Shown here: positions 487-44,263 of the stretch, piece after piece
Position numbering within the stretch: position 1 is the stretch's first letter
How the letters are laid out: every line of letters begins with the position of its first letter
IMG/VR virus record: IMGVR_UViG_3300037506_000026
Location: 1-44,263 of that record
Length of the DNA: 44,263 nt
Reading direction: 5' to 3' (one strand)
Source: a virus
The notes under the pieces: generated by a model
The model's input: only the letters and a program-made list of their open reading frames with translations
What the model was told of the DNA's origin: nothing
Database searches by the model: none
Program-made: the position numbers and the translations under genes

Positions 487-1248
487 TTAAACTTCTTCAA
501 AAGATATTGTTCCGCTTAAAAGGTCTGGCCTTCCGGCGGCAATCATATTGAAAGTCGGGTCCTGCTGGCACTCTACGAGCCAGACGTGAGGCATCGGCCT
601 GAACCAAGCCCCGTCTTTGAACGCCGCCAGAAAAAATGTTCTCTTGGAATTATGAAACCGCTCAAGCTCTGCGAGCTGAGCCATCTCCATATACTGCGCC
701 CCTTGGAAGTTGAGCGTCACCAAATCTTTGACGGTGAGAAATTCCGAAAGCAATTCTCCGAGCCTGTTGCGCTCTTGGGATCGGTACAAGTTACGCTTGA
801 CAATCAGCGACGTCGGAAAAAGGTCGAGTTCGTATTGATCGAGCATATCTTCTGGGTCTGCGAACGCCCACTCGTTTCGGTTGAGTTCAAGTTCTGCGCT
901 CAGAGCGGTATCGAGCCAGTACGACCCCACTTCGCTCCACGGTTCGGATCGGTCGATGCCGTTCAGGGTCGGAGCCCATCGCCAGAATCTTTTTTGTCCA
1001 GACGGCTGAGAATCAGTGAATGAATACTGAGACACGCCGACGGTGGTGTTCACGAACGTCGTCCTGAAATCGGCGTACAAGGAAACCTGCAAGAAATATC
1101 CGACCACCGGAGTAACGGACGTCCAGTTAAGAGTGATTCCGCTTTGGTTGTAGATCACCTTTAGAGTGGTGGTGACGTCTGAAACGAGCGTGTTCCCGTT
1201 GATGCCGCCCGTATTGAATTGTGCTGAGTTGATCATTGAGCCGATCAT
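487..1248 (-). CDS. Structural protein in the distal-tail (Dit) position
   Basis: 253-aa ORF whose start overlaps the tape-measure stop (ATGA). The call rests on position immediately after the TMP; no motif was recognised. Confidence 0.45.
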   Translation of the reverse strand: MIGSMINSAQFNTGGINGNTLVSDVTTTLKVIYNQSGITLNWTSVTPVVGYFLQVSLYADFRTTFVNTTVGVSQYSFTDSQPSGQKRFWRWAPTLNGIDRSEPWSEVGSYWLDTALSAELELNRNEWAFADPEDMLDQYELDLFPTSLIVKRNLYRSQERNRLGELLSEFLTVKDLVTLNFQGAQYMEMAQLAELERFHNSKRTFFLAAFKDGAWFRPMPHVWLVECQQDPTFNMIAAGRPDLLSGTISFEEV

Positions 1249-3080
1249 GCTGTCGCCCCCCTCCGTCGAATGAAGTTTCCGGTCGGGTTGGACATCGTCA
1301 TGCGCCGGATTTCAGGCATGATTTTCTCGCGGAACATCCTTTGCCACTGATTCTCGTTCCCTTCGATGAATTGTCCGCTGATGTTCACGGTAAGGTTCAG
1401 GCCCCCGCTATCCATCGCTCCCGTAAAGTCCATCCCCATTTCTTTGGCTGTCATGTTCCCGCCAGAGCCGCTTTTACCAAGAGGGACAATGGCTTCCGCT
1501 CCCGCCTCTCCCGCCAAAATAGTTTTACCAGACTTGAGTCCAGTGAGGAGAGACGGTTCGTTGATGATGCCTCCAGTTGCGGACTCCCCCATCGGTTTTG
1601 AAGCCAGCCTCTGAAATCCGAGGATGGATGCGGCGACCTGTCCCATTGATGCTCCGCCGAAACCGAGGGCCGACTTGAACGCGAGCGCGATCGCCAATTT
1701 CGCTATGAGAGCTACGATCTCAGAGATGAGAGTTTTGATGAGGCTTTTCCACACCTGTTTGATCGCTTGGGAAAAATTCTGAGAATCTACTATGACATCG
1801 GCCATCGCCCTTCCGAAATCGTTGAACATCGTTTCAGTGATGGACGTAAATTTGTTTGCCATCTCCGTATTCGTCGTGACGAACATATCCCGCCAGATGG
1901 TCTGAGACTCGTGAGCTTTCGCGTAGTATTCTTCCCACGCCTTTCCTTGTTCCTCCGTCGCGGTCATCACTATGGAATTCGCCATCCCGATGCTCTCTGC
2001 CAAATGCTGAACGGTGGCGTCTCTCGCCGCATTTTCTGCGGCGGCAAGTTGCCTCCACGCTTTCGTCTCCGCATTTACTTCGTTGTCGATGATCCCTTTT
2101 TTGAGCGCAGCGTTTTGTTGAAGTGTTACAACCGATGCTTTCTCAGCGGCGTCTTTGGCTTGAAGTTGAACGAGAAGGTTGGTGTTCTGGATGATTCTGT
2201 TCCGCAAAAATTCATCGTCGAGAGCTTCTGCTCCCATCTTTTGAACCAGGGTATTTCGATATTCAGAATAGCCTTGAAGCGCGAGCCCAATGAGCTTGTT
2301 GCTCTCTTTTAGTTGGGCAATTTGCATCTCCCGCACCGTCAAATCATTTCTTGAAGCCCCCGTAATTCTTTCAACATATCCGACTGCTTTATTGAGCCAT
2401 CCTACCCAAGCCGAAACGACAGGGACGAGTTCTTTTCCGATCTTCTCTTGTAGCTCTCCGATTCTATTCTTGAGATTTTCTATCGAACCGATCGTAGTTC
2501 CAGCCATCTGCTCGGCGGCACCACCAAATTTTTCTGTCAGCAAAGCGGTGGTCTTCGCTAACCGATCAGCCCGCGAATCTCCTTCTTCGAGAATGAGTCC
2601 GTATTTTTTGAGTTCACGCGAGTTTCCGGCCAACGCTTGACCGAAAATATTGGTTGCTTCCGTGAGGTCTTTTCCGGTCGCGGCGGCGAAATCTAAAATG
2701 GGTTTGGTCGCAGCTTTGACCGTCCCAGGCATAAGTCCAAAATTCGCCAACTGAGTCTGCAAGGCGAGGATGCCCTCATCTGTGAAAGTGGTGACCTTCT
2801 GCAACTCCTCCGCATATTTCGAGAGCGCCCCAGCGGCATCACTTCCAACGGCAATGGTGAGGCGGGATAATGCTTGCTCCTGTTCCCCGTAGGCTCGAAC
2901 AGCATCACGTCCGAAATCGAGAATAGCCTTGGCAGAAAAGGCGACGCCGATGGCTTTTCCAATAGAGGCCAAACTCGATTGGAAGCCTTCGATTTTGTCT
3001 GTGGCTCCGCTGATTGATTTTTTGAAATCATCAGCGATGAGTTTTAGGGTGACTTCTAATTCACCCGCGTTTGTCGCCAT
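1245..3080 (-). CDS. Tail tape measure protein
   Basis: 611 aa. Long alpha-helical, Ala/Gly/Lys-rich sequence with a hydrophobic Gly-rich segment (LIAKLAIALAFKSALGFGGASMGQVAASILGF). Sits directly after the chaperone pair. Confidence 0.85.
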   Translation of the reverse strand: MATNAGELEVTLKLIADDFKKSISGATDKIEGFQSSLASIGKAIGVAFSAKAILDFGRDAVRAYGEQEQALSRLTIAVGSDAAGALSKYAEELQKVTTFTDEGILALQTQLANFGLMPGTVKAATKPILDFAAATGKDLTEATNIFGQALAGNSRELKKYGLILEEGDSRADRLAKTTALLTEKFGGAAEQMAGTTIGSIENLKNRIGELQEKIGKELVPVVSAWVGWLNKAVGYVERITGASRNDLTVREMQIAQLKESNKLIGLALQGYSEYRNTLVQKMGAEALDDEFLRNRIIQNTNLLVQLQAKDAAEKASVVTLQQNAALKKGIIDNEVNAETKAWRQLAAAENAARDATVQHLAESIGMANSIVMTATEEQGKAWEEYYAKAHESQTIWRDMFVTTNTEMANKFTSITETMFNDFGRAMADVIVDSQNFSQAIKQVWKSLIKTLISEIVALIAKLAIALAFKSALGFGGASMGQVAASILGFQRLASKPMGESATGGIINEPSLLTGLKSGKTILAGEAGAEAIVPLGKSGSGGNMTAKEMGMDFTGAMDSGGLNLTVNISGQFIEGNENQWQRMFREKIMPEIRRMTMSNPTGNFIRRRGATA

Positions 3081-3701
3081 ATCTCCTCACCTTTCCTTTC
3101 TTGACGGGCAACCCTGCCGCGCTCGCTTGCTCGGTCAAGGGTTTTGGTTGCCGCGCCTTCAACATGGCACCAGCGATTAAGTCCACTGGCGGGTTCGTTT
3201 CGATCCGCTTCATTAGGGCGCGAATGGTCGGCCACGTCAAACTGTCTACGTAGTCGATTGTCCATCCGTAAGCCAATCCCATGAAATGATAGATCCAAAA
3301 TTCCCCCGCTACACCGTCGGCTTGATCGTCTCTTGGGGAGCCGCCGGTTTTTGGTTCCCCATCTTTGCGAAAAAATCGTCTAACCCATTCACTTTGATCG
3401 CTGTCTCAATGATCGACCGGATATCGTTGATGGTCATGTTTTCGTCGATCCACGTCGGGTTCAAGAACGGATATTTGCCCGTTCTAAACAACAGCGGCAA
3501 GAACACGTTGATGCGCTCCTCGATGATCTTGGGAACGCGCATGGCTGACGGGGTTTCCCCGCTGGCTGTTATTTCTTCGATCGCATCGAACACGATCTTG
3601 AACACTTTTTTCACATTGCCGTAAGGCACCGCTTCCACTGTCAATGTCTTGTCGCCGATTTTGAAATCTACGGCGTCTCCTGCCTTCACTTCTTTGGTCA
3701 T
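3061..3701 (-). CDS. Tail assembly chaperone, -1 frameshift fusion product (G-T type)
   Basis: The -1 frame is open from the slippery site at 3375..3369 down to the stop at 3061. It reads ...GLDDFF/RKDGEPKTGGSPRDDQADGVAGEFWIYHFMGLAYGWTIDYVDSLTWPTIRALMKRIETNPP... and includes the 73-aa ORF 3061..3282. Confidence 0.6.
3309..3701 (-). CDS. Tail assembly chaperone (G-like, zero-frame product)
   Basis: 130-aa acidic protein directly upstream of the tape measure. It contains the in-phase T_TTT_TTC heptamer near its 3' end. Confidence 0.7.
   Translation of the reverse strand: MTKEVKAGDAVDFKIGDKTLTVEAVPYGNVKKVFKIVFDAIEEITASGETPSAMRVPKIIEERINVFLPLLFRTGKYPFLNPTWIDENMTINDIRSIIETAIKVNGLDDFFAKMGNQKPAAPQETIKPTV
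3369..3375 (-). promoter_or_regulatory. Programmed -1 ribosomal frameshift slippery heptamer T_TTT_TTC
   Basis: Minus strand reads GAT TTT TTC in the zero frame (X_XXY_YYZ phasing is correct). The -1 frame is open downstream for about 104 codons. Confidence 0.6.
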
Positions 3702-4231
3702 TTGAGGTCTCCTTTCCTTTCGGGTGATGCGATCACCGCGAGACCACCGTTCCCCGGCCTCACGCGGATCAACATCCCATTCGCTTTCGCGTAACCCTCG
3801 CAGGCGTCAAGCGTCTGCGGGTATTTGTTCACATCATGCACCATGATGAGTCCCGTCGGCTTGACCGACGGCCCCCATGTCTTCAATTCCAAATTCACTT
3901 GCTCGTAAGTGTGGATCGTGTCGCAGAACAGGAGATCCAACTCGCTCGGAACACCCTCTGATTTCAGACGCGCCACATCCAGAGAATTTCCGTGGATGAA
4001 TTTCCAATTCGGATGAGATCTGAAAACCTCCGAGCATCGGTCGTTCAAGTCCACGCTCCACACTTTCCCTCCGTTTTGTTCGACGCCGTATAGCAACGCC
4101 GACGTTGCGATGCCTTCCCTCACTCCCAACTCCAATACATTCCCTTCCGCATGGAGGTAGAGGAATTGCAGATGATCTTTGAATTCTACGCCAGACCTGA
4201 GCCACGCAGTGAACCGTTCGGCGGCCTTCAA
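3698..4231 (-). CDS. Class I SAM-dependent methyltransferase (O-methyltransferase/CmcI-like)
   Basis: 177 aa. Motif I-like VLELGVREGIATSAL, then acidic VWSVDLND and LLFCDTIH in Rossmann order. Confidence 0.65.
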   Translation of the reverse strand: MKAAERFTAWLRSGVEFKDHLQFLYLHAEGNVLELGVREGIATSALLYGVEQNGGKVWSVDLNDRCSEVFRSHPNWKFIHGNSLDVARLKSEGVPSELDLLFCDTIHTYEQVNLELKTWGPSVKPTGLIMVHDVNKYPQTLDACEGYAKANGMLIRVRPGNGGLAVIASPERKGDLK

Positions 4232-4980
4232 ACGGCCACCGTCCCGTTGAGGCGCGATCGAAACAACGCCTCGTTCTTAGCGACCACCGCCATATCGTCT
4301 TTCAGTCCCGTCTTTGGGAACCTGTGAATGAACACGCTGGCGTCCACTACTGTCATCCACCCCTTCTTCTCGGCACGATGGCAAAAATCCTGATCTTCAT
4401 ATCCGCGACCCATAAACGCCTCATCGAAACCGTTGACGCTCTCATATGTTTCACGCCTAAATGCCATGCAGAAGGAGCTAACGGATTGAGCCGGATAGGT
4501 CGTATCCTCACGCCCCATGCGCTGAGGCACGGGCCCGTGGGAAGTCATGGGGCCAACGATCCCTACCTTCGGATCGGACGTCAGCGTCTTGATGAGGCGC
4601 GATGCCCAGCCCGGCTCCACGACTACGTCCGGCGTCACGAGGATGCCGTACTTCACGCTGGCGAAAGCGAACATGAACCGGAAGGCCATATTTGCTTCTG
4701 CCGCGAGGCTGTGTTCCTTCTGGTATTTGAGGACGTTGACGTTGTGGTTGCGCGGGGTATATTTCAAATACTCCGAAGTCCTGAACCCGCTCATGTTGTC
4801 CACGATCGCCATGACGTAGCGGTGATCGGTGAAGTCCAAGATGGAGTGGAACGTCAGCTTGAAAAACTTGAGGTTGTCGCGCATGGGGATGGCGATCCCG
4901 ATGGAGCCTTCTGGCGGGTTCGACAGGAACGGCCTCGTAGAAGACGGCCATTCGTTCTGAGGCTTCACTGGCGCGTTCAT
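4228..4980 (-). CDS. Family 2 glycosyltransferase (GT-A fold)
   Basis: 250 aa. N-terminal IGIAIPMRDNLKFFKLTFHSIL...AIVDN, then GILVTPDVVV, then the C-terminal block FCMAFRRETYESVNGFDEAFMGRGYEDQDFCHRAEKKGW typical of GT2. Confidence 0.75.
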   Translation of the reverse strand: MNAPVKPQNEWPSSTRPFLSNPPEGSIGIAIPMRDNLKFFKLTFHSILDFTDHRYVMAIVDNMSGFRTSEYLKYTPRNHNVNVLKYQKEHSLAAEANMAFRFMFAFASVKYGILVTPDVVVEPGWASRLIKTLTSDPKVGIVGPMTSHGPVPQRMGREDTTYPAQSVSSFCMAFRRETYESVNGFDEAFMGRGYEDQDFCHRAEKKGWMTVVDASVFIHRFPKTGLKDDMAVVAKNEALFRSRLNGTVAV

Positions 4981-5195
4981 CGCGGAACCTCCTCCCTGAT
5001 CTTCACGCTTTTATCTGCTGGCTCAAGCCTGATGCCCTTGCTATCCACTTCTGAAACGACCCACCATTCGCCAGCCAGAGGGTATTTCGCCCCCTTCGAG
5101 ATAGAGATGCTTCCCTCCACATTGAACGTGCTGGCGGTCATTTTGGCGATCCATTCCAGAGGGATCGTGAGCTTAATGCCTGAAAAAAGTTTCAT
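4977..5195 (-). CDS. Hypothetical protein (72 aa) within the glycosylation cassette
   Basis: ATG at 5195 forms an ATGA overlap with the upstream stop and has GGGAG 6 nt upstream. The longer track start at 5300 would overlap the upstream gene by 108 nt. Confidence 0.5.
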   Translation of the reverse strand: MKLFSGIKLTIPLEWIAKMTASTFNVEGSISISKGAKYPLAGEWWVVSEVDSKGIRLEPADKSVKIREEVPR

Positions 5196-6283
5196 TCCCA
5201 ACTCCCTTTGATGGCCGGAGGCAGATTCAATATCTCGTCCAGGTGCCAGACTACCGTACGGCCTTCCTGAAAAGTCTTCTTGCAATTCTCGGCGGCCCAT
5301 TCAGCGAGGCTGGCTTGCTTCACTCCCCACGGCTGAAAAATGTTCCACGTAGAACAAGTGGTGAAGTCCAACTCCTTGAAGGCTTGGATGATGTTCAGGA
5401 GCGACTTAGCATAGATCGCAAGCTCAGGGTCGGTGCGGTAGGAAAGCTCCTTGGAACCTTCCGGCGTCTTCATGTCGGGTTCCGAGGCCGTCCCTTGAGG
5501 TTTAAGGAACGAACGGGAGACGCGCTCGTCGTTGTCGTAGAGGGGCGTGGATGCCTTGGGAACCCACTTGTCGCCCTCCTTGACGTAATCTTGGGCGCGG
5601 TAACGCCACCCGTCGCCGTCCTTGGCATAGCACAAGTCCATTCCGACCCCCGCCACCTTCTTGCACCCCAACACCATCGCCAACTGGACAGCCATGTTTC
5701 CTACCGTTCCGGCCGATGGTATCTGGCCGATGTCGGGGTAGATGTATGGCAGAAGTTTCTCAGAAAATTCGTCGGTCGTGTGCCAGTGATTGAAAAAGAG
5801 TTTCGTCCCAACCCACGATTTGATGACGTCTGGGTGGGCGCAGGAATCGAACACCATCGGCACTCCCGTCATCAGTCCATCCCACAAAACGGATTGCTCC
5901 TTCTTGCAGTCGAACGAGATCACGAGATCGGGCGTAATGTTGTTGATCCGAAGCGGCTTGAAGGCCGCATCAGTGGCGATGATGACGGCCTTACGCTTGA
6001 GCGATCTCAGCGTGTCGAAATTGGCGTCGAGGCTTGGCCCAACCCCAACGACGACGGCAGGCATCCCTTCGCAAGAGCCCGAGAGGAAGCGGACGCCTCT
6101 GGACTTCGACACGAGCGCGTAATTCTGCGCGGCGTGCTTGGCCCATCGGTGCAACCACGAATCGGTTGCCTTGACGTCCGCTCCCCCCTTCTCTGAACGA
6201 AAAGCTCTCACGCCGGATCTGACTGGAAATCCGGCCTGCTTCAATTCTGCGACTTGGTTCTCTAATGTTGACGATTGGCTCAT
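5192..6283 (-). CDS. DUF115 / MptE-like, motility-accessory-factor (Maf)-like putative glycosyltransferase
   Basis: 363 aa from the ATG at 6283 (AAGGAG upstream). Carries the DUF115-type block AVVVGVGPSLDANFDTLRSLKRKAVIIATDAAFKPLRINNITPDLVISFDCK and later GTVGNMAVQLAMVLGCKKVAGVGMDL. Confidence 0.6.
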   Translation of the reverse strand: MSQSSTLENQVAELKQAGFPVRSGVRAFRSEKGGADVKATDSWLHRWAKHAAQNYALVSKSRGVRFLSGSCEGMPAVVVGVGPSLDANFDTLRSLKRKAVIIATDAAFKPLRINNITPDLVISFDCKKEQSVLWDGLMTGVPMVFDSCAHPDVIKSWVGTKLFFNHWHTTDEFSEKLLPYIYPDIGQIPSAGTVGNMAVQLAMVLGCKKVAGVGMDLCYAKDGDGWRYRAQDYVKEGDKWVPKASTPLYDNDERVSRSFLKPQGTASEPDMKTPEGSKELSYRTDPELAIYAKSLLNIIQAFKELDFTTCSTWNIFQPWGVKQASLAEWAAENCKKTFQEGRTVVWHLDEILNLPPAIKGSWE

Positions 6284-6304
6284 GGCTCTTACGTCTCCTT
6301 TTCT

Positions 6305-6323
6305 CTTAACCCTTGGGGTTAAG
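6305..6323 (-). other. Intercistronic stem-loop just downstream of the major tail protein gene
   Basis: Perfect 8-bp stem CTTAACCC/GGGTTAAG with a 3-nt loop, 7 nt after the stop at 6330. No U-tract follows. Confidence 0.5.
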
Positions 6324-6329
6324 GATATT

Positions 6330-7106
6330 TTAGGCGGTCGCGTCTTCTTGGATGATTTCTCCGAGGTTCTTTCCTTCCGGCCTCGAAGTGTCAACCAACG
6401 CCTTGAACATGATGTTGTGAACAGTGTAGTCGCCCGATTCTCTTTCGTTGAAGGCCATTTCCAACTCGGTGCTGGTCATAGCTTTGAACAGAGTGATCTG
6501 CCAGAGTTTTCCCGTCGAATCACGATGGGTAAAATCAAGCTGAAACGTGTTGGGCGCACGAGTTTCCCCGCCGAACGGAAGGCTTGCGGCTCCCGCGTCT
6601 GAGAAGTCGTACTCAAGGCCGACGTATTGTCCGGCTGAGATAGCTCCACCAGAAACGCGGCGAATGTCGGATGGCGAACCAGACAAAACGTAATCGGTCG
6701 TCACGACATATTCGGTTTTTCGGTCGAGGGAGAACACGCTGAGCGAACCAGACAGGATCGTCTCTGCTGGCGACGTGAATACAACACCAGACAGCCTCAA
6801 CACTTCGCGGTTGCGAAGGCGTTTGTCGGTCGTCGAATCAACGGCTTCGTTGATGCCGAGGGCGTGGCGCAGTTGCGAGAGTTTCAGGTCGCACACCGAT
6901 GCTTCGAGTGTGCATTCTTCTCCGACCACTTCACCTTTGACATCTGCCACGTTGTTGCCCGGACGCTGATAAGCGTATGAGCGTGTGAACGTGAAGGTCA
7001 CCGTCTCTTTCAGGTTTCCGACAAACACGTCGTTGATGTATAGGTCGCCAAGACCCAACAGCAAGCGTCGTGGTTCGGCGTATGCGTTTTGATTGTTTCC
7101 TGACAT
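6330..7106 (-). CDS. Major tail (tube) protein
   Basis: 258 aa with a strong SD (AAGGAGGAAGCAAA-ATG). Sits between the tail-completion genes and the chaperones and is followed by a stem-loop. Confidence 0.7.
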   Translation of the reverse strand: MSGNNQNAYAEPRRLLLGLGDLYINDVFVGNLKETVTFTFTRSYAYQRPGNNVADVKGEVVGEECTLEASVCDLKLSQLRHALGINEAVDSTTDKRLRNREVLRLSGVVFTSPAETILSGSLSVFSLDRKTEYVVTTDYVLSGSPSDIRRVSGGAISAGQYVGLEYDFSDAGAASLPFGGETRAPNTFQLDFTHRDSTGKLWQITLFKAMTSTELEMAFNERESGDYTVHNIMFKALVDTSRPEGKNLGEIIQEDATA

Positions 7107-8660: not shown

Positions 8661-9143
8661 TCACCTCTCTATGAAATCCAATTTATCCGACGACACCAAT
8701 TCGTTCGGACTCACGAGCTTATCCCCCACATCCACCAGAGCGAATCCCGCTTCTTTATACGCACTCGCGACCCATGCTGAGCAGACTTGGTGGACGTGGG
8801 TGAGGCCAAATTGCCCAAGAAACATTTGCCAGAAAGAATATGAATCGTTGATGTGAAAGTACGCCCAATAGATCGCTCTCGTTTTGATCGCGTCATCGCA
8901 CTTGGGCCTCATCACGATTTTCGTTCTCATATCGTCGGCGATAAATCGAAAGCTCGGCCTCGGCCACTTCATGTCGATCATCAAATCCGGCTCCGTCGAG
9001 ATCATCCCCACATGAGTCATGGAAGTCTCTTTGGACATTTTCCCCATCTGCCCTCCCCACACTTGGAGCAAGGTGAAGATTCTGTTCTGCCACTTTCCGC
9101 TGTCTGGATAGAACACGATGTCTCCGGCCTTGAGTTCGATCAT
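8661..9143 (-). CDS. Permuted papain-fold (NlpC/P60 superfamily, C92 YiiX/YaeF-like) amidase
   Basis: 160 aa from the ATG at 9143 (ATGA overlap with the upstream stop). LKAGDIVFY ... MTHVGMI ... VMRPK ... VCSAWVASAYKEAG shows the His-before-Cys order typical of the permuted family. Confidence 0.6.
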   Translation of the reverse strand: MIELKAGDIVFYPDSGKWQNRIFTLLQVWGGQMGKMSKETSMTHVGMISTEPDLMIDMKWPRPSFRFIADDMRTKIVMRPKCDDAIKTRAIYWAYFHINDSYSFWQMFLGQFGLTHVHQVCSAWVASAYKEAGFALVDVGDKLVSPNELVSSDKLDFIER

Positions 9144-9760
9144 GCATAGTAGTCCAGCAAGAAGTAGACTTTTTTCGCTGTCCCTGTTGACACGGGCGTG
9201 AATGTGATCTTGAGGCGAAGCGTTGTCGCAAACTCCATGCACTCCGATGATAAGACTTCAACACGCATCCCATTCACCAAAAACAAATCCTCCATCGGTG
9301 TCATAATGGTCGTCCACACGCTGTTGATCTGCATCTGGATTTCGACCTTCACCTTATCGCCATTCGCAACGTCTTTCGAGTAAATCATCCCGCCGCGCAA
9401 ATAGATCAACGTGCCAAATGAAATATCAAGGGATGCCGAGGAATCTTCTGCGCCACAAGCAATCTCGTAGCCTTTCCACCGCTCGGTTGTGTTATTTGGT
9501 TGCGGAGAATTGCTAACGCGATGAACACGCGCCGTGCCTGCTTTTATCTCAAGAGGAGCGTTGGCGGTTGGCATGAAGTTGTCTTCGAAATCTTCGTAGT
9601 CAGCTGTGCCGGAAACGACCGTAACGTGCCACAAGAGGACATTCGCTTCTGGCGCAAAGATGTCGTAAGAATTTGCTCCGACAGAATACTGCATGAGCAA
9701 TTTTTTGGACGCGACCAGAGATTTGAAATCACTCCATGATGCGATTTCCATTGATTGCAT
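9140..9760 (-). CDS. Hypothetical structural-module protein (206 aa)
   Basis: Long ORF with a TAATG junction to the upstream gene. The sequence looks beta-rich. Confidence 0.6.
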   Translation of the reverse strand: MQSMEIASWSDFKSLVASKKLLMQYSVGANSYDIFAPEANVLLWHVTVVSGTADYEDFEDNFMPTANAPLEIKAGTARVHRVSNSPQPNNTTERWKGYEIACGAEDSSASLDISFGTLIYLRGGMIYSKDVANGDKVKVEIQMQINSVWTTIMTPMEDLFLVNGMRVEVLSSECMEFATTLRLKITFTPVSTGTAKKVYFLLDYYA

Positions 9761-10341
9761 TATGCGTTCACCTCATAACCACCAAAGTTCGCTCTCCACG
9801 TTGTGCTGGTTGCCGCCGAAGGAGTCACGACAACACGGATAACAGTTCCGGCGGGAATAGGGACATTCAAAGCAACGGGCGAATCGTTTGATGGAGCGTG
9901 GAACCTATCGACTGTTATTATTTTAGTCCCACTTGGAGTTTCAGCGCTCATGGAGCCAAGGAATATAGGGTTCACATTTCCAGGAAGCGATGTCCTGTAC
10001 CCGTTCATCTGCACATATTGCAAATAAAAAATTTTCCCCGATGTTACGGTGTACGTTAGAACCACTTGATCGGCGGTCGTCGCTGTCGTAATAAGCGATC
10101 CCGTCTTAAAGACTGGCGTTCCAGTCGCCGGTGGTTGGACAGTGACAGGAATGGAAGGCTGATCGGATGCCATTGTAAAGGGAACCGAATTGGCCATCGT
10201 CTTTTGACCAAGCGTTAGAGCAGAACCTCCGACACGAAGAATGTCTGCCGGCGTGTTTCCCTCGGCAGTCACATTGGCATCAATGCCTGTTGGCCCCTCG
10301 ATGACGGTGCGGTTCTTCTCGATGTTCGGCAAATCAGCCAT
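9760..10341 (-). CDS. Hypothetical structural-module protein carrying the shared C-terminal IPAG-x-VI-x-V domain (paralog 1)
   Basis: 193 aa. C-terminus NVPIPAGTVIRVVVTPSAATSTTWRANFGGYEVNA resembles the C-termini of the 11919..12320 and 10687..11661 products. Confidence 0.6.
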   Translation of the reverse strand: MADLPNIEKNRTVIEGPTGIDANVTAEGNTPADILRVGGSALTLGQKTMANSVPFTMASDQPSIPVTVQPPATGTPVFKTGSLITTATTADQVVLTYTVTSGKIFYLQYVQMNGYRTSLPGNVNPIFLGSMSAETPSGTKIITVDRFHAPSNDSPVALNVPIPAGTVIRVVVTPSAATSTTWRANFGGYEVNA

Positions 10342-10621
10342 TTTTCTTCACATCATCTTTGTGAGCAAATTCGTGAACCGTCCTCGCCAAAAAAGCGAGG
10401 TTGCGATTGATGCTCGAAAGCACTTGAACCAAAACGATCAACTCATTCCCTTGGACGTGCATGGTCGGTCGAAGTTCAACTCCCGACGGAGTTTCTTTGA
10501 GTTTCCGACCTGCTTCCGGTACGGGAGTTTTCTCGACGTTGACCGTTTTCTCTGGATTCGGATTCTCCGTCACCGCCGGAATATCCTCCGGCTTTCTTCC
10601 TTGCAAGTCTATGTCTGCCAT
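10334..10621 (-). CDS. Hypothetical protein (95 aa)
   Basis: ORF with AAGGAGAC upstream. Pro/Glu-rich N-terminus and helical C-terminus. Confidence 0.5.
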   Translation of the reverse strand: MADIDLQGRKPEDIPAVTENPNPEKTVNVEKTPVPEAGRKLKETPSGVELRPTMHVQGNELIVLVQVLSSINRNLAFLARTVHEFAHKDDVKKNG

Positions 10622-10640
10622 GTTGTCTCCTTGTGGTCAT

Positions 10641-10670
10641 GGGGAGAGCGACCCGAAGGCCGCCCTCCCC
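10641..10670 (-). other. Stable intercistronic RNA hairpin with a UUCG tetraloop (forms fully only in the minus-strand transcript)
   Basis: Minus-strand RNA GGGGAGGGCGGCC-UUCG-GGUCGCUCUCCCC gives 13 bp including two G-U pairs. The same positions are A-C mismatches on the plus strand. Confidence 0.6.
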
Positions 10671-10686
10671 CGCCCGATTGAATTTT

Positions 10687-11661
10687 TTACGCTACGTCGT
10701 TACCCATGATCGTCGAGTAGACGTCCTGAGCTTGTCCTTGGCGGTTCGTCCGAATCACTCGCACGGTGCCAGTCGAAGTGACGGGAACCTCACGCGGAGG
10801 ATTGAACGGAATGAAACAGTTGCCGCCTTCTTTGGGAATGAACCCGACGGCGATGGTGACCAGAGAGGCCACGGGACCAGTCTGGACTGTCACCTTAAGG
10901 CCGCCCGAAGCCGAAGCCCACACGCCCTTCAAGAGGAACGTGGTTCCGGTTACGGCATAGTCGTGGTTGTCTCCCGTGTCGGAGGCCACATCCACCGAAG
11001 TGTCATAACTGTGGACTTCGTTCGACAGGACTCCAACGTCAACCATCTGAACGTAGATGGGGTTGGTTGGGCCGTTGGCGGTTGTGTTGCCGGAAATCTT
11101 CACGGAATCCAGAGCCAGAGTGAGGTCGCGAATGTCGAGATCAGTCGCCGAAACAGGAACAGTGCCGTTGACGTTGACCGTTACTCGGCCGGAAGCGTCA
11201 ATCGCAAGACGATTGGCATCAGTGGTAGCGTCAACCAAAACGATGAGCTGTTTCCGGTCAAGCGTCATTCGAGCGATACCAACATCGCCTTCATTCACGG
11301 AGTCAGGAGCCGTTTCATCGGCCAAGAAGCCGCCGGGGGAAACCTTGTCAACGCCGATCGAGAAGGCCGAATCGTCGTCTTTGGACGGCCCAGAGCCTGC
11401 GCCGTTCACGTCTTCGACCCACAACGCGCCGTTGGCATTCACGCGAAGCTGAACGTAGTCTCCGTCTGCCGGAGTGAGAGCTGTCAGAGCATCGTCGCGA
11501 ACCGCGAGGATCGCTACGCCTGCATCAGAGCCGCCTGCCGCTACGTCAACGACCTTGTGGAGAGCGTTTGTTCCGTCTGAGAGTTCGATCCAGATCGGGT
11601 TGCCGACCACGTTTGCGTTTCTGTCTTTTGATACGAGTGTTGGAAAATGACCGTCAGCCAT
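10687..11661 (-). CDS. Hypothetical structural-module protein (324 aa), paralog 2; possibly an abundant virion component
   Basis: Long Gly/Asp/Val/Thr-rich, beta-type sequence. C-terminus VPVTSTGTVRVIRTNRQGQAQDVYSTIMGNDVA parallels ...IPAGDVIDVKVEHFVTGETPDFEASIMGY. Followed by a stable hairpin. Confidence 0.65.
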   Translation of the reverse strand: MADGHFPTLVSKDRNANVVGNPIWIELSDGTNALHKVVDVAAGGSDAGVAILAVRDDALTALTPADGDYVQLRVNANGALWVEDVNGAGSGPSKDDDSAFSIGVDKVSPGGFLADETAPDSVNEGDVGIARMTLDRKQLIVLVDATTDANRLAIDASGRVTVNVNGTVPVSATDLDIRDLTLALDSVKISGNTTANGPTNPIYVQMVDVGVLSNEVHSYDTSVDVASDTGDNHDYAVTGTTFLLKGVWASASGGLKVTVQTGPVASLVTIAVGFIPKEGGNCFIPFNPPREVPVTSTGTVRVIRTNRQGQAQDVYSTIMGNDVA

Positions 11662-11917
11662 TTGTTTGTCCTCCTTGAGAATTTTCGTTTAAGTCGATTT
11701 CGATGGCGAGTTTGTTTTCCAGTTTAAGGATTTCCAACTCGCACATCTTGATCTTTGCCTGCAAGTCAAGGATGCGTCCCTTTTGCAAATCTTCAATGTC
11801 CTGAGTGTAGCGAACGATCTGCGAACGCTTCTCTTGGATCTGCACCTTAACCCACATGTCGTCTATCTCTTTGGTCGGACTCACGAGCCAGTTTTTAGCT
11901 ATCCCGATGTCTGCCAT
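11654..11917 (-). CDS. Coiled-coil protein (87 aa)
   Basis: ATG at 11917, one nt after the upstream TGA. Heptad-like QIQEKRSQIVRYTQDIEDLQKGRILDLQAKIKMCELEILKLENKL. Confidence 0.5.
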   Translation of the reverse strand: MADIGIAKNWLVSPTKEIDDMWVKVQIQEKRSQIVRYTQDIEDLQKGRILDLQAKIKMCELEILKLENKLAIEIDLNENSQGGQTNG

Positions 11918-11918
11918 G

Positions 11919-12320
11919 TCAGTACCCCATGATCGACGCTTCAAAATCTGGCGTCTCTCCTGTGACGAAGTGTTCCACTTTCACGTCGATCACATCACCC
12001 GCTGGAATTTTCCACGGGCTGGCGAATTGGAAGGGCTGGTCGCGATCTGGTCCTGTTCTCTGGATGATTTCGTCGGCTGAATTGCGGACGAGAAACCATT
12101 TTGCATACTCCATCCCAGAACAAAAAATTGCCGTGATGTATCTGTCTGTTACGGCGGCGGCCAGCGTCACCACGGTCGTCTTGACCGATGCGGCAACTGA
12201 TGGAGCGATTGCCTTTGCCAATATCGTCGAAGGCATCACCACATCGCCACTTCCTCCGCTCCCATCCCCGACCAAATCGAGGCGTCCTGTGAGCGGGTTG
12301 TATCGGAATTGGTTTGACAT
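11919..12320 (-). CDS. Hypothetical structural-module protein (133 aa), paralog 3
   Basis: N-terminus FRYNPLTGRLDLVGDGSGGSG (fibre-like). C-terminus KIPAGDVIDVKVEHFVTGETPDFEASIMGY. Confidence 0.6.
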   Translation of the reverse strand: MSNQFRYNPLTGRLDLVGDGSGGSGDVVMPSTILAKAIAPSVAASVKTTVVTLAAAVTDRYITAIFCSGMEYAKWFLVRNSADEIIQRTGPDRDQPFQFASPWKIPAGDVIDVKVEHFVTGETPDFEASIMGY

Positions 12321-12321
12321 A

Positions 12322-12579
12322 TCACGGGAACAAGGACGCCCTATCGTCCCACTTCTTTTTCACGGACAGGCTTCGCGCCCGTATGCAACACGCGGATGAG
12401 TCGTATTGCAGTTTCGTGATGAACCAAATTTCCGCATCTGTTGGACCGTTCACGGCCGCTGTGACGCCGACGTATTCGATCACGGTCTGGACAGGCGTTC
12501 CTGCCGTGGTGTAAGCGATCCGAACATCCTTGCCGGATGCGGAAAAAACCAACTGAGCAAGGAGTTCGTCTACGCTCAT
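12322..12579 (-). CDS. Hypothetical protein (85 aa)
   Basis: ORF tightly packed between its neighbours, with a 4-nt overlap upstream. Confidence 0.5.
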   Translation of the reverse strand: MSVDELLAQLVFSASGKDVRIAYTTAGTPVQTVIEYVGVTAAVNGPTDAEIWFITKLQYDSSACCIRARSLSVKKKWDDRASLFP

Positions 12580-29371: not shown

Positions 29372-29779
29372 CTACGTTCGTTCTTTAGTGGGTCGAATTT
29401 CGAGGCGGGTTCCGCCCTTTGGATTCTGCTTGTCCCATCGGCGATGGCAGGGCTGGCATAGCCAGCGGACTTTTAGCGGTTGGCTGTAATCGTAATGCGC
29501 GCCCTCGATGGGAATTCCAGTTCGGCGGCATTCCTCGCATTCGGTTGGGCGGTGGATATGGCCCTTGGCGATGTGGTAGCGAAGCAGGCTGGACGCCGTC
29601 CCGGCCTTAGCCGTGTGGACGTGAAATCTTACGCGCCCCGTAGCCTTTGTTAAGTACCAACATTTCTTTGAACAAAATCTTCGACCGAGATGATCCAACG
29701 GGCCGAATCGATTTCCACATTTTTCACAATTTCTAAATGTCTGTGGTTTCCGATTTCCTCCCTGTTGTCCTGGCCTCAT
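29372..29779 (-). CDS. HNH-type endonuclease / zinc-finger protein
   Basis: 135 aa. CEKCGNRF...CSKKC, then CEECRRTGIPIEGAHYDYSQPLKVRWLCQPCHRRWD. Confidence 0.65.
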   Translation of the reverse strand: MRPGQQGGNRKPQTFRNCEKCGNRFGPLDHLGRRFCSKKCWYLTKATGRVRFHVHTAKAGTASSLLRYHIAKGHIHRPTECEECRRTGIPIEGAHYDYSQPLKVRWLCQPCHRRWDKQNPKGGTRLEIRPTKERT

Positions 29780-31182
29780 AATTTCTGCGGCTTAACTCCC
29801 GTGAGCTTCTCGAACCTCTGAAGGATAACATCGCAATACGCGCGGTCGAGTTCGATGCCGTAGCATTTGCGGCCCGTGGATTCGGCTCCGAGGAGCGTGG
29901 TGCCGCTTCCTAGAAACGGGTCGATCACGATCTCGCCGGGCAGGCTTGAGTTTTGGAGCGCGCGGCGCGCCAGCTCCACCGGTTTTTGGGTGGGGTGTTC
30001 GTAGTCCGACTCGCGGGATACCTCCCAGAGGTCGTCCTCCCCTTTGCTGGAGGCCAAAATTAACGCCTCCCCTTGAGCCAGGCGAACGTTTCGCACCTTT
30101 TTAGGGGTAGGGCCTGGGCCGATGAAAATCGTCGAGCCTTGGCCATCCTGGACGTTTATACCGTGTCCGAGCGTCATGCTCTGGCCGGTTTTGGTTTTGT
30201 AGCCGAGTCGCCAGACGGTTGATTCGTTCCGCTGGCCGAAGTAGCGGGGCTTCTGTCCTTCCTTGGCGGCGTAGAAACACGGCTCATGCGCCCAGCGGTA
30301 ATCGCTCCAGCCCAGCACGAAGCTCGGCTTAGCCCAGATGATGTATTGGCGTTCCATAATTCCGGCGGCCTTAAGGGCGTAGGAGAATTCGTCGCGGGTC
30401 GTGGTGGCGTGCCAGACGTACCAGGCGGCGTCGTCCGAGGCGTGGAGCATGGCCTGCTGGAACACGGGTTTTAAGAGATCGACGATCAGCCGGTCGCCGG
30501 TCTTTTCGTCGTTCTGGATTTTGGCGAATTTGTCCGTGGTCGATTCGTAGCTGATCCCATACGGCGGGTCGGTGAAGATGAGGTTGGCTTGCGCACCGTC
30601 CATAAGCGCGGCCCATATGTCCGGGTTCTTGGCGTCACCGCAGATGAGCCGATGGTTTCCCAACGCCCACATTTCCCCGGTGCCAAATTCTTTGCCCGCC
30701 GCGATCTCCGGCTTCACGGCGTCGTCCAGGGCCTTCTCGCTGGTTCCTTCCACTTCGTTCATGAGCGCGCGCGCGGTCGCGTCGTAACCGGTTAGGTCAA
30801 GATCGAGCGAGCTTTTCATGAGTTCTTGCATCATCGATCCCACGGCGTCGCCATCGATGTCAGCGAGTTCGGCGATCCGGTTGTCGGCCAGCAGGTCGGC
30901 CAGCTCGACTTCCTCGTTTACGTATTCCTGGTAATCGACCGGCACGTGCGTCACCAGCATTTTCTTAGCGGCCATCAGGCGCGCGTGGCCGGATGTAATG
31001 AATCCTGATCGCTTAGACACCGTGATCGGCTTGCGCCATCCCTGGGCTTTGATGATCCGGGCGAGCAGTTCCACTTGCTCATCCGAGTGTCGGTTCGGGT
31101 TACGCGGGTGGGGCTTGAGGTTGCCCACCGGCTCGATGGCGTTGTGGGAGCAGTGAACGTCGAGGAAGTCGGCCTTGGCCAT
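29776..31182 (-). CDS. ParB-like nuclease domain fused to an N6/N4 DNA methyltransferase
   Basis: 468 aa. N-terminal LKPHPRNPNRHS...ITSGHARLMAA (ParB/Srx-like). Catalytic LIFTDPPYG, and a C-terminal SAM-binding block VIDPFLGSGTTLLGAE. Confidence 0.85.
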   Translation of the reverse strand: MAKADFLDVHCSHNAIEPVGNLKPHPRNPNRHSDEQVELLARIIKAQGWRKPITVSKRSGFITSGHARLMAAKKMLVTHVPVDYQEYVNEEVELADLLADNRIAELADIDGDAVGSMMQELMKSSLDLDLTGYDATARALMNEVEGTSEKALDDAVKPEIAAGKEFGTGEMWALGNHRLICGDAKNPDIWAALMDGAQANLIFTDPPYGISYESTTDKFAKIQNDEKTGDRLIVDLLKPVFQQAMLHASDDAAWYVWHATTTRDEFSYALKAAGIMERQYIIWAKPSFVLGWSDYRWAHEPCFYAAKEGQKPRYFGQRNESTVWRLGYKTKTGQSMTLGHGINVQDGQGSTIFIGPGPTPKKVRNVRLAQGEALILASSKGEDDLWEVSRESDYEHPTQKPVELARRALQNSSLPGEIVIDPFLGSGTTLLGAESTGRKCYGIELDRAYCDVILQRFEKLTGVKPQKL

Positions 31183-42659: not shown

Positions 42660-44263
42660 CTAATTGAATTTTGCTTTTGATTTCAAGTCTGCCAATTCAT
42701 CTTCGAGCTTGCGAACGTGAGCGCATAATATACCCACGACGGCATTTTCGTAATTCATGGTTTCAAGAATATGCCCGTCCTCGATTGGCCGACAAACGCT
42801 TGGGAGATTGTCGTTCAAGTAGCCCATGAATCTTCGCCCGCCCCTATCAAATAAAATGCCGCGCGGGATTTCCACGGAGGCGGGGTCGATGTCAGTGATG
42901 TTTTCTTTCGTCGATGAATGCGATGTGTTGATCGTGCTGTTTGTTGCGAAAACAGTATTCCATCTCGCCGAGCCGGAGCCAAGATTCATAGTTCCGTCCG
43001 TGCCACCAGGAGAAAGTTGCCCTGTCGTAAGAGCAAGATGTTGAGCGCCATTGCAAGCCCAACCGATAACATCCGCGCCCTGCCTAAACATGCCGGTGTT
43101 CGTGTCGTTCGTAAACGTGAATGATGGCGATGCCGCTGATCCATCCTCCAACCTGCAATTCAGCGCATTCAAATTGCTCTCCGTGCTAAAATTGAAGTCC
43201 CCCGTCGTAATTCCAAAGCGTAACACCCCGCCCGTCGAAAAGTTCAATTGGTTTGATCCGGCACGATATATGCCTGTATCCTGGTCACTGTCAAAAGAAA
43301 TGCTTGGAGTTCCAGCCGACCCGTCTCCAACTCGTAATGGTGTGGCATTAAGCAGAGTAAATTGAGAACCCGTTGAGAAAGAAAGACCTTGGGAACCATT
43401 TGTAGACCACCCAATAGTATTAGCTCCTTGTCGAAACATTCCGGTGTCCGTATCCGATGTAAACGTAATTGAAGGGGCCGCCGCGCTTCCGTCTGCGAAC
43501 TGGATCGTTGATGTCAACACTCCACTATTGACAGTCAACCCACTGTTGTCGATGGTGACGCGGAGAACGCCGTTGGTGGAGAAGCCGATAGAGTCCGCCG
43601 ATGGACTAAACATCCCAGTATTTCCGTCCCCGTTATATGAGTATGTCGGAAGGGACGCAGAGCCGAGCGGAGAAAACATTTGACCCCCTCCACCAAGCGT
43701 GAAATGATCGGTTGAACCAATCCTAAAAATCATCACTTCGTTTGCTGCCGTTGCATTGTGTGTGTATTGAATCAACCCTTGCACTGTCGTGCCTTCTGCA
43801 TCAGTAAAGGCAAGAATGCCGGAATTGTTAGTGCCAGAACGAATTGTGATTCCTGTTGAGCCAGTGGACGAGGCGACGACGAATTGACGAGCGTTTGAAT
43901 TGTATGAGATAGGGCTTGCTGTTCCGAGTCCCATACGGCCACCTGAATCGACAACCCACCGTTGCACTCCCGCTGTTCCGAGGGACACTTCATCTGCCGC
44001 GCTATTGTAGAGTCCTGTGTTGTCGTCTGCCGCCCATGAGTACGTTGGCAAGGTGACGCTTCCAGCTTGTCCAAGAAATGTCCCAACCTCAAGAGAAACA
44101 CCGTCCGAGCCGATGCGCATAATCTGAACGCCGCCAATGGCAAAGCCAATGCGCGTTGAGATGGAATACATCCCCTTGCTTGGAATCCCCATAAACGAAT
44201 AAGACGGTGCCACCGCTGAACCAAGCGGCGCAAGAATTTGAGTCGCGCTCAACCCTAACCGAT
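42660..44263 (-). CDS. Tail fibre protein, main body: about six copies of a ~40-aa repeat plus a C-terminal S74-type intramolecular chaperone domain. Its N-terminus is at 473..1.
   Basis: Repeats of the type PS[YI][ST]F..D.[DN]TG[MI][FY]....[AD]..[GS][FW][SA]T.G. C-terminus ...TSHSSTKENITDID...MNYENAVVGILCAHVRKLEDELADLK resembles Peptidase_S74. Confidence 0.8.
   Translation of the reverse strand, partial: RLGLSATQILAPLGSAVAPSYSFMGIPSKGMYSISTRIGFAIGGVQIMRIGSDGVSLEVGTFLGQAGSVTLPTYSWAADDNTGLYNSAADEVSLGTAGVQRWVVDSGGRMGLGTASPISYNSNARQFVVASSTGSTGITIRSGTNNSGILAFTDAEGTTVQGLIQYTHNATAANEVMIFRIGSTDHFTLGGGGQMFSPLGSASLPTYSYNGDGNTGMFSPSADSIGFSTNGVLRVTIDNSGLTVNSGVLTSTIQFADGSAAAPSITFTSDTDTGMFRQGANTIGWSTNGSQGLSFSTGSQFTLLNATPLRVGDGSAGTPSISFDSDQDTGIYRAGSNQLNFSTGGVLRFGITTGDFNFSTESNLNALNCRLEDGSAASPSFTFTNDTNTGMFRQGADVIGWACNGAQHLALTTGQLSPGGTDGTMNLGSGSARWNTVFATNSTINTSHSSTKENITDIDPASVEIPRGILFDRGGRRFMGYLNDNLPSVCRPIEDGHILETMNYENAVVGILCAHVRKLEDELADLKSKAKFN
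44137..44263. repeat. Second copy of the 127-bp terminal overlap (= 1..127)
   Basis: Exact identity with bases 1-127. Confidence 0.9.

Follow-up and report, generated by a model that had tools for sequence, protein, structure and literature searches.

Cellular Maf proteins O-link nonulosonic acids from CMP-sugars to serine and threonine residues of flagellin. In Aeromonas, glycosylation of flagellin begins in the cytoplasm, where Maf-1 attaches pseudaminic acid (Pse) as the linking sugar; Fgi-1 extends it. The genomic islands concerned lie beside the flagellin genes, are polymorphic in gene content, and are associated with N-acetylhexosamine (HexNAc) residues that are variably methylated (PMC7874193). 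Among phages, the cluster O mycobacteriophages encode an O-methyltransferase followed by three glycosyltransferases, which are reported to modify the capsid and the tail tube (Freeman et al. 2023, as cited in PMC11600133; also PMC12363180). Here we analysed a 44,263-nucleotide viral DNA (IMG/VR record IMGVR_UViG_3300037506_000026, positions 1 to 44,263; this whole stretch is hereafter called the window), in which a cassette of four genes—for a DUF115/MptE-like protein, a small open reading frame (ORF), a family 2 glycosyltransferase (GT2), and an S-adenosylmethionine (SAM)-dependent methyltransferase—separates the tail tube gene from the tail assembly chaperones. On balance, and with modest confidence, we propose from the sequences and their comparison that this cassette would glycosylate a virion protein, probably the tail tube, in the host cytoplasm and with sugar donors made by the host.

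The DUF115 protein falls into the same PF01973 catalytic superfamily as the cellular Mafs (PseD/PseE, Maf-1, and CbMaf; PDB 5MU5), with which it shares the GPSL, PD, D125, and GxD216 residues. Like Mafs, it is predicted to be soluble and cytoplasmic, and in both cases the gene adjoins that of a filament- or tube-forming helical polymer protein. However, Maf genes are linked to flagellin and accompanied by genes for donor synthesis, whereas the phage gene sits beside the tail tube gene with no nonulosonic-acid genes nearby in the Pfam annotation. The cassette also follows the logic of the Aeromonas islands, namely an initiating Maf-type enzyme, extending glycosyltransferases, and methylation next to the substrate gene. 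Those islands, in contrast, are cellular, include pse donor synthesis, and act on a flagellin that is exported via the flagellar type III system, while the phage cassettes comprise two to five genes and no donor synthesis. Mycobacteriophage cassettes (Che8, Corndog, Myrna) resemble that of the window in that an O-methyltransferase and glycosyltransferases are encoded within the virion structural operon. In Corndog, whose capsid and tail tube are reported to be glycosylated, gp35–38 lie between portal and protease, inside this operon; gp35 belongs to Methyltransf_24 (and TylF), the same Pfam family as the window methyltransferase, and gp37 is GT2-like. Unlike the window, Corndog has no DUF115/Maf-like enzyme, an actinobacterial host, and a portal–protease instead of a tube–chaperone insertion site, and BLASTP of the window enzymes against gp35–38 returned only one 24-residue local match. 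Since mycobacteriophage virion cassettes precede it, the kind of system is already known; what is new is the core enzyme of Maf type, its place in the operon, and the lineage of phages that carries it.

The DUF115 gene adjoins the tail tube gene throughout the phage clade

Among 21 distinct related loci, drawn from metagenomes and IMG/VR, the DUF115 gene was without exception (21/21) located directly 3′ of the tube gene. With more than 20 independent contigs from metagenomes showing the same order, at protein identities of 35–76%, the arrangement reflects more than chance. The content of the interval from DUF115 to the chaperones varied: some loci carried GT2 alone, others the small ORF, GT2, and Methyltransf_24 as in the window, and others again a GT-B-like gene plus GT2, with or without Methyltransf_24; in the longest version, a further class I methyltransferase gene came first, followed by a small ORF and then by the GT-B-like, GT2, and Methyltransf_24 genes. 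A distant phage, whose tube and DUF115 proteins are 29% and 31% identical to those of the window, encodes tube, DUF115, GT-B-like protein, chaperones, and tape measure in this order, with no GT2. Given that this phage has exchanged GT2 for the GT-B-like enzyme, tube and DUF115 form the only invariant unit, always together with at least one further glycosyltransferase. That partners come and go by lineage while one gene pair stays fixed suggests a likeness, at the level of gene content, to diversifying surface-glycan systems.

Phage-type DUF115 homologs were confined to contigs of up to ~47 kb, many of them 42–46 kb and hence of the size of this genome, and one NCBI-derived homolog was found in the metagenome-assembled genome GCA_040383985.1. 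A megablast search with 20 kb of sequence matched none of 50,697 phage records, and a scan of 185,579 species genomes uncovered no DUF115 relatives as prophage.

The tube gene itself (6330..7106, minus strand; 258 aa) is the constant upstream neighbor of the cassette. Its product was identified through an AlphaFold2 (AF2) model (pLDDT 77; alignment from database homologs), for which all 19 Foldseek matches in the PDB with E ≤ 0.001 were siphophage tube proteins (E 3e-10 to 4e-4), including 8xkn, 9jgh, 8ygm (SPR), JBD30, Mystique, YSD1 6xgr, and Chi. Weak matches to PHROG 807 and to the NCBIfam model tail_tube_6XGR were also obtained, and tblastn of the tube protein against the 50,697 phage records returned no match. 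We considered a conserved C-terminal Ser/Thr glycosylation tail in the style of the mycobacteriophages, but such a tail is not present in this tube family. The nearest solved tube structures are of SPR/SPbeta type (8ygm, 8ygo, 8ygc), and the same tube occurs in PDB complexes with the DSR2 defense protein, so that modifying the tube could conceivably influence how it is sensed by host immunity.

On its downstream side, the cassette is bounded by the tail assembly chaperone pair (G/GT-like; 3061..3701, minus strand). The 130-aa G ORF (3701–3309) carries a canonical −1 slippery heptamer, T TTT TTC, at 3375–3369, and three-frame translation showed that the −1 frame stays open for ~104 further codons up to a stop at 3063–3061, 20 nt inside the tape-measure gene (start 3080). 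An ORF with such a −1 extension is a hallmark of G/GT tail chaperones. Independent gene calls leave the extension unannotated. The chaperone is directly upstream of the tape measure gene (1245..3080, minus strand; 611 aa), as it is in relatives, and the tape measure protein matches PHROGs 991, 339, and 1533 (‘tail length tape measure protein’; E 9e-17 to 1e-6). The four cassette ORFs, all on the minus strand, thus lie between tube and chaperones as the preliminary description of this DNA had stated, with the tube now identified by AF2 and Foldseek, the chaperone by its slippery site, and the tape measure by PHROG matches.

The DUF115 protein resembles a Maf reduced to its catalytic core

The constant enzyme of the cassette, a DUF115/MptE-like protein of 363 aa (5192..6283, minus strand), is predicted from sequence and model to be a sialyltransferase-like glycosyltransferase. 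A hidden Markov model (HMM) search, as proposed in the preliminary description, bore out its three family assignments, with PF01973, Glycos_transf_2, and Methyltransf_24 all recovered above the Pfam cut-offs. For PF01973 (MptE-like/DUF115), the score was 119.1 bits (cut-off 34.6; E 2.2e-34) over profile positions 2–170 of 171, and the motifs GVGPSLD, ATD, and PDLVISFD, quoted earlier for this protein, are present. When its AF2 model (pLDDT 87, pTM 0.84) was searched with Foldseek, the top match was Maf 5mu5 (E 2.9e-8; 308 columns of 363; 14% identity), whereas archaeal MptE/HPPK aligned over 180–200 columns only; eukaryotic and viral sialyltransferases appeared lower in the list. By plain sequence, Maf (5mu5) and MptE (8sd5) were equally weak matches. 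The sole NCBIfam match was to the flagellin modification protein PseD (domain-level 5e-14).

Searches for relatives extended this picture. A word-indexed profile search returned ~116 phage-type clusters at E ≤ 1e-94, followed by a gap to ~1e-19, and the matches beyond this gap were proteins of 477–624 aa, one of them named a Maf-family glycosyltransferase. Three Maf-sized relatives (P0122–P0124) match the PseD model over up to positions 78–577 of 640. An exhaustive HMMER search of 1.84 billion representatives retrieved 14,480 superfamily members: past the phage clade came a few short DUF115 proteins (298–421 aa) and then mostly proteins of 590–660 aa, matched over approximately residues 200–480, with no MptE-sized protein among the best 150 of the 14,480 hits. 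Thirty columns were invariant across 39 phage homologs, and the residues common to the phage proteins and 28 Maf-sized relatives included N54, GPSL(82–85), P118-D119, D125, G214-x-D216, Y291, and C334. As the latter two are included, the shared conservation reaches past the Pfam core. Archaeal MptE (8SD5) has PF01973, a Rossmann-like core, and the GxGPS motif in common with the phage protein; however, MptE chains are single-domain, ~215–240 aa long, and function in pterin metabolism, whereas the phage protein contains an extra 140-aa region that is common to Maf. No pterin or folate genes were detected around the cassette in the annotation of this genome.

Taken together, sequence and fold comparisons support placing the DUF115 protein on the Maf side of the family and not on the archaeal MptE side. 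By alignment and model, it is a Maf catalytic core with the subdomain that follows, that is, a predicted single-domain ‘mini-Maf’. What the N- and C-terminal domains do in cellular Mafs is described as unclear (PMC11339370). The phage protein probably works by a Maf-like mechanism, but we do not count it among the Mafs, because it has neither the three-domain architecture nor a PseD score above the cut-off. The earlier comparison with motility accessory factors therefore holds for the catalytic core—by fold, PseD match, and relatives—and not for a full-length Maf, given the 363-aa length and the missing flanking domains.

DUF115/MptE-like proteins of the same fold also appeared among viral models in BFVD, from uncultured Caudovirales and Mimiviridae ChoanoV1 (A0A6J5PG89, A0A0F7L3H2, A0A6J7X5Q0, A0A5B8IGA8; E 3e-14 to 1e-9; TM ~0.5–0.7), but these differ from the window protein in their low identity (13–20%) and range in length from 213 to 714 aa. 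One BFVD match, of 714 aa, is annotated as ‘Methyltransferase domain containing protein’. The window protein had no PHROG family match and no tblastn match in the 50,697 phage records, and a literature search returned no relevant study of DUF115 or MptE-like proteins in phages.

Partner enzymes of the cassette

The GT2-type glycosyltransferase (GT-A fold; 4228..4980, minus strand; 250 aa), a predicted glycan extender, matched Glycos_transf_2 (PF00535; 30.2 bits, cut-off 23.3, E 5e-7) and Glyco_transf_7C (PF02709; 36.5 bits, cut-off 23, E 4e-9), as well as PHROG 2456 (glycosyltransferase) and, in part, MftF (5.6e-13). It possesses the motifs VDN, TPD (DXD-like), and EDQDF, which are conserved in ‘full’ cassettes. 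Tblastn against the 50,697 phage records yielded a single weak match to a gut-phage fragment.

The last gene of the cassette (3698..4231, minus strand; 177 aa, TTG start) encodes a class I SAM methyltransferase of the Methyltransf_24 family (PF13578; 62.1 bits, cut-off 26.3, E 1e-16), a predicted sugar O-methyltransferase. Its match to the rhamnosyl O-methyltransferase model RMNT_CmcI stayed under the cut-off (19.7 versus 23.2 bits; E 7.8e-4), and a weak match (E 0.0086) led to PDB 6g7d, a ‘Methyltransferase domain protein’ that we take to be a mannoside methyltransferase. There was also a short local match to PHROG 2675, ‘DNA methyltransferase’. Methyltransf_24 is an optional member: of the 17 related loci that span its position, it went undetected in 9.

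In many relatives, a GT-B-like protein of 334–371 aa is encoded between DUF115 and GT2 (e.g., L001 11059–12063, L003 8087–9199, L017 10038–11048, and L042 9040–10056). It gave only sub-threshold matches to Glycos_transf_1 and Glyco_trans_1_2, and it has the conserved motifs HITTTDPAG, HIHGHP, and GLSSLEG-MGKP; it is probably an undescribed GT4-like subfamily.

The small ORF (4977..5195, minus strand; 72 aa), likewise an optional member, has no assigned function and matched nothing in Pfam, PHROG, or NCBIfam. It is absent from most relatives; in L011 and L012, a homolog occupies the equivalent place (29–30% identity; E 8e-5 and 2e-7). The 72-aa call (5195–4977), with its ATGA overlaps at both ends, agrees with that of an independent gene caller, and a 107-aa reading from 5300, which would overlap DUF115 by 109 nt, is less likely than this coupled version. 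A 295-aa plus-strand ORF (4324–5211), antisense to GT2, to the small ORF, and to the 3′-terminal part of DUF115, was treated as spurious since the three minus-strand genes opposite are conserved in relatives.

Cassette junctions

All four junctions downstream of DUF115 are 4-nt overlaps: ATGA between DUF115 and the small ORF and between the small ORF and GT2, TTGA between GT2 and the methyltransferase (the latter’s TTG start), and ATGA between the methyltransferase and the chaperone. The tight coupling that had been described for this cassette was thus confirmed. The tube–DUF115 junction differs, in that a 46-nt spacer (6284..6329, minus strand) with a hairpin and a ribosome-binding site (AAGGAGA) takes the place of an overlap. 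RNAfold predicted a GC-rich hairpin of 8–10 bp (CCTTAACCCC/GGGTTAAG; −10.8 kcal/mol), with no T-run 3′ of it on the coding strand. Approximately 13 of 18 folded spacers from relatives have a hairpin at the same position (L009, L012, L015, L017, L020, L041, and L042 among them), the sequence being different each time, so that conservation extends to position and structure only. The hairpin may be an attenuator or an mRNA-stability element, and the spacer would lower expression of the enzymes relative to the abundant tube protein. Co-transcription of the cassette with the tail genes is presumed, with the caveat that the hairpin comes after the tube gene.

Site of action and sugar donors

None of the cassette proteins contains a transmembrane segment (maximal 19-residue Kyte–Doolittle hydropathy below 1.5), and no integrase was detected in the genome annotation. 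Gtr-type seroconversion modules consist of integral-membrane proteins and are expressed from prophages near attachment sites. The cassette has none of these features—no integral-membrane enzymes, no prophage context near an integrase or attachment site—and belongs to the late tail operon. The lack of transmembrane segments, of an integrase, and of prophages, together with the coupling to the tail chaperone, argues for a cytoplasmic reaction late in infection and against a Gtr-type module.

As the precomputed Pfam annotation contains no gene for nucleotide-sugar or nonulosonic-acid synthesis, the donors would be host-made. CMP-3-deoxy-D-manno-oct-2-ulosonic acid (CMP-Kdo) is made by essentially all Gram-negative bacteria, and endolysins with GH108 and PG_binding_3 domains, such as the one encoded in this genome, are typical of phages of Gram-negative hosts. 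Besides their native substrates CMP-Pse and CMP-legionaminic acid (CMP-Leg), Maf enzymes accept CMP-N-acetylneuraminic acid (CMP-Neu5Ac) and CMP-Kdo (PMC11339370), so that host pools of CMP-sugars could suffice.

Genome context

An exact 127-bp direct repeat at the window ends (1–127 and 44137–44263), together with a second, circularly permuted assembly of the same genome (Logan SRR12687782_218680; 44,166 bp), indicates that this DNA is a complete phage genome of ~44,136 bp that assembled as a circle and is either circular or terminally redundant. A 649-aa tail gene is divided over the window ends (42660–44252 plus the window start). The minus strand holds most genes, including the entire structural block, which in the direction of transcription reads probable small terminase, TerL, lambda-type portal, Phage_capsid_4 major capsid, head–tail connectors, the 258-aa tube, and the cassette, followed by the 130-aa chaperone ORF, the 611-aa tape measure, distal tail genes, and the GH108 plus PG_binding_3 endolysin. 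The interval between capsid and connectors is highly variable in the clade (L001 1125–5335 versus window 8661–12400): in L001, it encodes a 1149-aa protein and a Laminin_G_3 protein, and in the window several small ORFs and a 324-aa protein without family match. Elsewhere in the genome, at 29776–31182 (minus strand), a 468-aa protein fuses a ParB-like nuclease/partition domain to an N6/N4 DNA methyltransferase (PHROG 498, E 5e-125, and ParB-like PHROGs). There are no tRNA genes in the genome.

Discussion

In light of the tube–DUF115 synteny, the Maf-side placement of DUF115, the lack of transmembrane segments, and the Corndog precedent, glycosylation and methylation of virion proteins, as suggested in the preliminary description, is the best-supported reading of the cassette, and we lean towards it. 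Within this reading, we favor the tube as the acceptor, and DUF115 for the transfer of a (non)ulosonic acid. As spacer and overlaps suggest, the enzymes would be produced late, alongside the tail proteins but below the level of the tube protein. By homology, the donor for DUF115 would then be an ulosonic or nonulosonic acid that the host has made and activated with CMP (Pse, Leg, Neu5Ac, or Kdo); the enzyme would attach this sugar to Ser/Thr of a virion protein, where it would form the direct linkage, or else add it to a glycan. GT2—in relatives, the GT-B-like enzyme in addition or instead—would attach a hexose or HexNAc from a host nucleotide sugar, and Methyltransf_24 may O-methylate a sugar, thereby capping and diversifying the glycan. 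Judging from precedent, the resulting coat could alter how the tail surface is recognized by proteases, adsorbing matrices, and possibly host immune sensors of the tube; that a glycan might mask tube monomers from tube-sensing defense is speculative. A narrower version, in which a widespread and wholly uncultured clade of ~44-kb siphophages uses the mini-Maf to O-link a sialic-acid-like sugar or Kdo from host pools to its tube subunits, is rather doubtful, yet we retain it as a tentative possibility.

Several observations weigh against virion glycosylation. Donor, acceptor, and linkage are all inferred, and the precomputed Pfam annotation of this genome and its relatives contains no gene for nonulosonic-acid or CMP-sugar synthesis. 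Adjacency to the tube gene is no proof that the tube is the acceptor, seeing that mycobacteriophages modify capsid and tube, and there is no conserved Ser/Thr at the tube C-terminus. With regard to the enzyme, the PseD score (51.8 bits) is far under the 670-bit cut-off of the model, the 363-aa protein is devoid of the N-terminal Rossmann-like and C-terminal helical domains of Mafs (~600–650 aa), and PF01973 also includes a pyrophosphokinase, MptE, the structure of which ranks second among the fold matches. Moreover, the chemistry of GT2 is not uniformly conserved: the EDxDF motif is gone from the GT2 of six minimal cassettes that consist of DUF115 and GT2 only (L009, L010, L013, L014, L015, and L041), and the DXD-like Asp is gone as well in three of the 14 aligned relatives (L009, L013, and L014). 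The GT2 homologs of minimal cassettes, which carry a deletion and come from loci without a Methyltransf_24 gene, may be inactive or repurposed enzymes.

Other readings of the cassette retain the glycosyltransferase activity and change its target. The enzymes might modify a glycan of the host envelope (the core or O-antigen of lipopolysaccharide, the capsule, or a lipid-linked precursor) and, akin to seroconversion, block superinfection or re-adsorption to debris. This alternative, already raised in the preliminary description, would fit the typical occurrence of GT2 enzymes and sugar methyltransferases in polysaccharide pathways, as well as the weak NCBIfam matches of the GT2 and GT-B-like proteins to HpsN, HfsG, HpsP, and Kdo transferase; besides, soluble glycosyltransferases can use lipid-linked acceptors at the inner membrane face. 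We nevertheless disfavor it as unlikely, for the cassette is without transmembrane segments, no integrase was detected in the genome and no prophage in the 185,579 species genomes, the genes are translationally coupled to a tail chaperone in a late structural operon, and strict tube–DUF115 adjacency over deep divergence is not expected of a moron that acts on the host surface. Alternatively, the acceptor could be a virion protein other than the tube—the major capsid protein, a decoration protein, or the fibers—with the site next to the tube gene merely permissive. In mycobacteriophages the capsid is modified too, the Corndog cassette resides in the head-gene block, the tube C-terminus offers no conserved Ser/Thr, and the variable capsid–tube interval of relatives can encode large proteins containing Laminin_G_3. 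Set against this, the tube–DUF115 pair has been kept in the distant phage despite the exchange of partners, and cellular maf genes adjoin the gene of their substrate (PMC7874193), which leaves a separate virion acceptor improbable in our view.

A different activity was also considered. If DUF115 were an MptE/thiamin-pyrophosphokinase-like or other nucleotide-dependent enzyme, it could activate the GT2 substrate or serve tail assembly; the Pfam family is named for MptE, the plain-sequence matches to Maf and MptE are equally weak, the Methanocaldococcus jannaschii HPPK structures 8sd5 and 8sbu match the fold (E ~1e-5; TM ~0.6, target-normalized), and SteA, which is thiamin-pyrophosphokinase-like, is also among the Foldseek matches. 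However, the Maf match is both stronger and longer (308 versus ~190 columns), PseD is the only NCBIfam match, no MptE-sized protein occurs among the best 150 relatives, conservation continues beyond the MptE core, and no pterin or folate context was detected, all of which renders a pyrophosphokinase-like function quite improbable. Still further from what the locus suggests, the enzymes might hypermodify bases of the phage DNA for evasion of restriction. Phage glycosyltransferases are classically DNA-modifying (PMC12619734), and the methyltransferase has its short local match to PHROG 2675; yet the cassette is in the tail module and not in a replication or nucleotide-metabolism module, the annotation contains no dNMP kinase or thymidylate-synthase-like hypermodification genes, a separate ParB–N6/N4 DNA methyltransferase is encoded in the genome, and Methyltransf_24 includes the O-methyltransferases TylF and CmcI and is not a DNA methyltransferase family. 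We consider DNA hypermodification highly improbable.

To our knowledge, phage-encoded virion glycosylation has so far been reported for actinobacteriophages only. The present cassette suggests that it is a conserved, clade-defining trait of an unrelated and abundant lineage of environmental phages, in which another enzyme, with a catalytic core of Maf type, is central. Were the narrower version above to hold, these phages would provide the first member of the Maf family that acts on a substrate other than flagellin and the first virion decorated with an ulosonic acid. A Maf minimized to 363 aa and with a new acceptor would separate the catalytic from the substrate-recognition parts of Maf, and could serve as a compact tool for protein sialylation or Kdo modification in the bacterial cytoplasm. 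For the phages themselves, the cassette would represent a testable case of glycan diversification on the tail surface, with possible roles in particle stability, adsorption, and the evasion of defenses that sense structural proteins.

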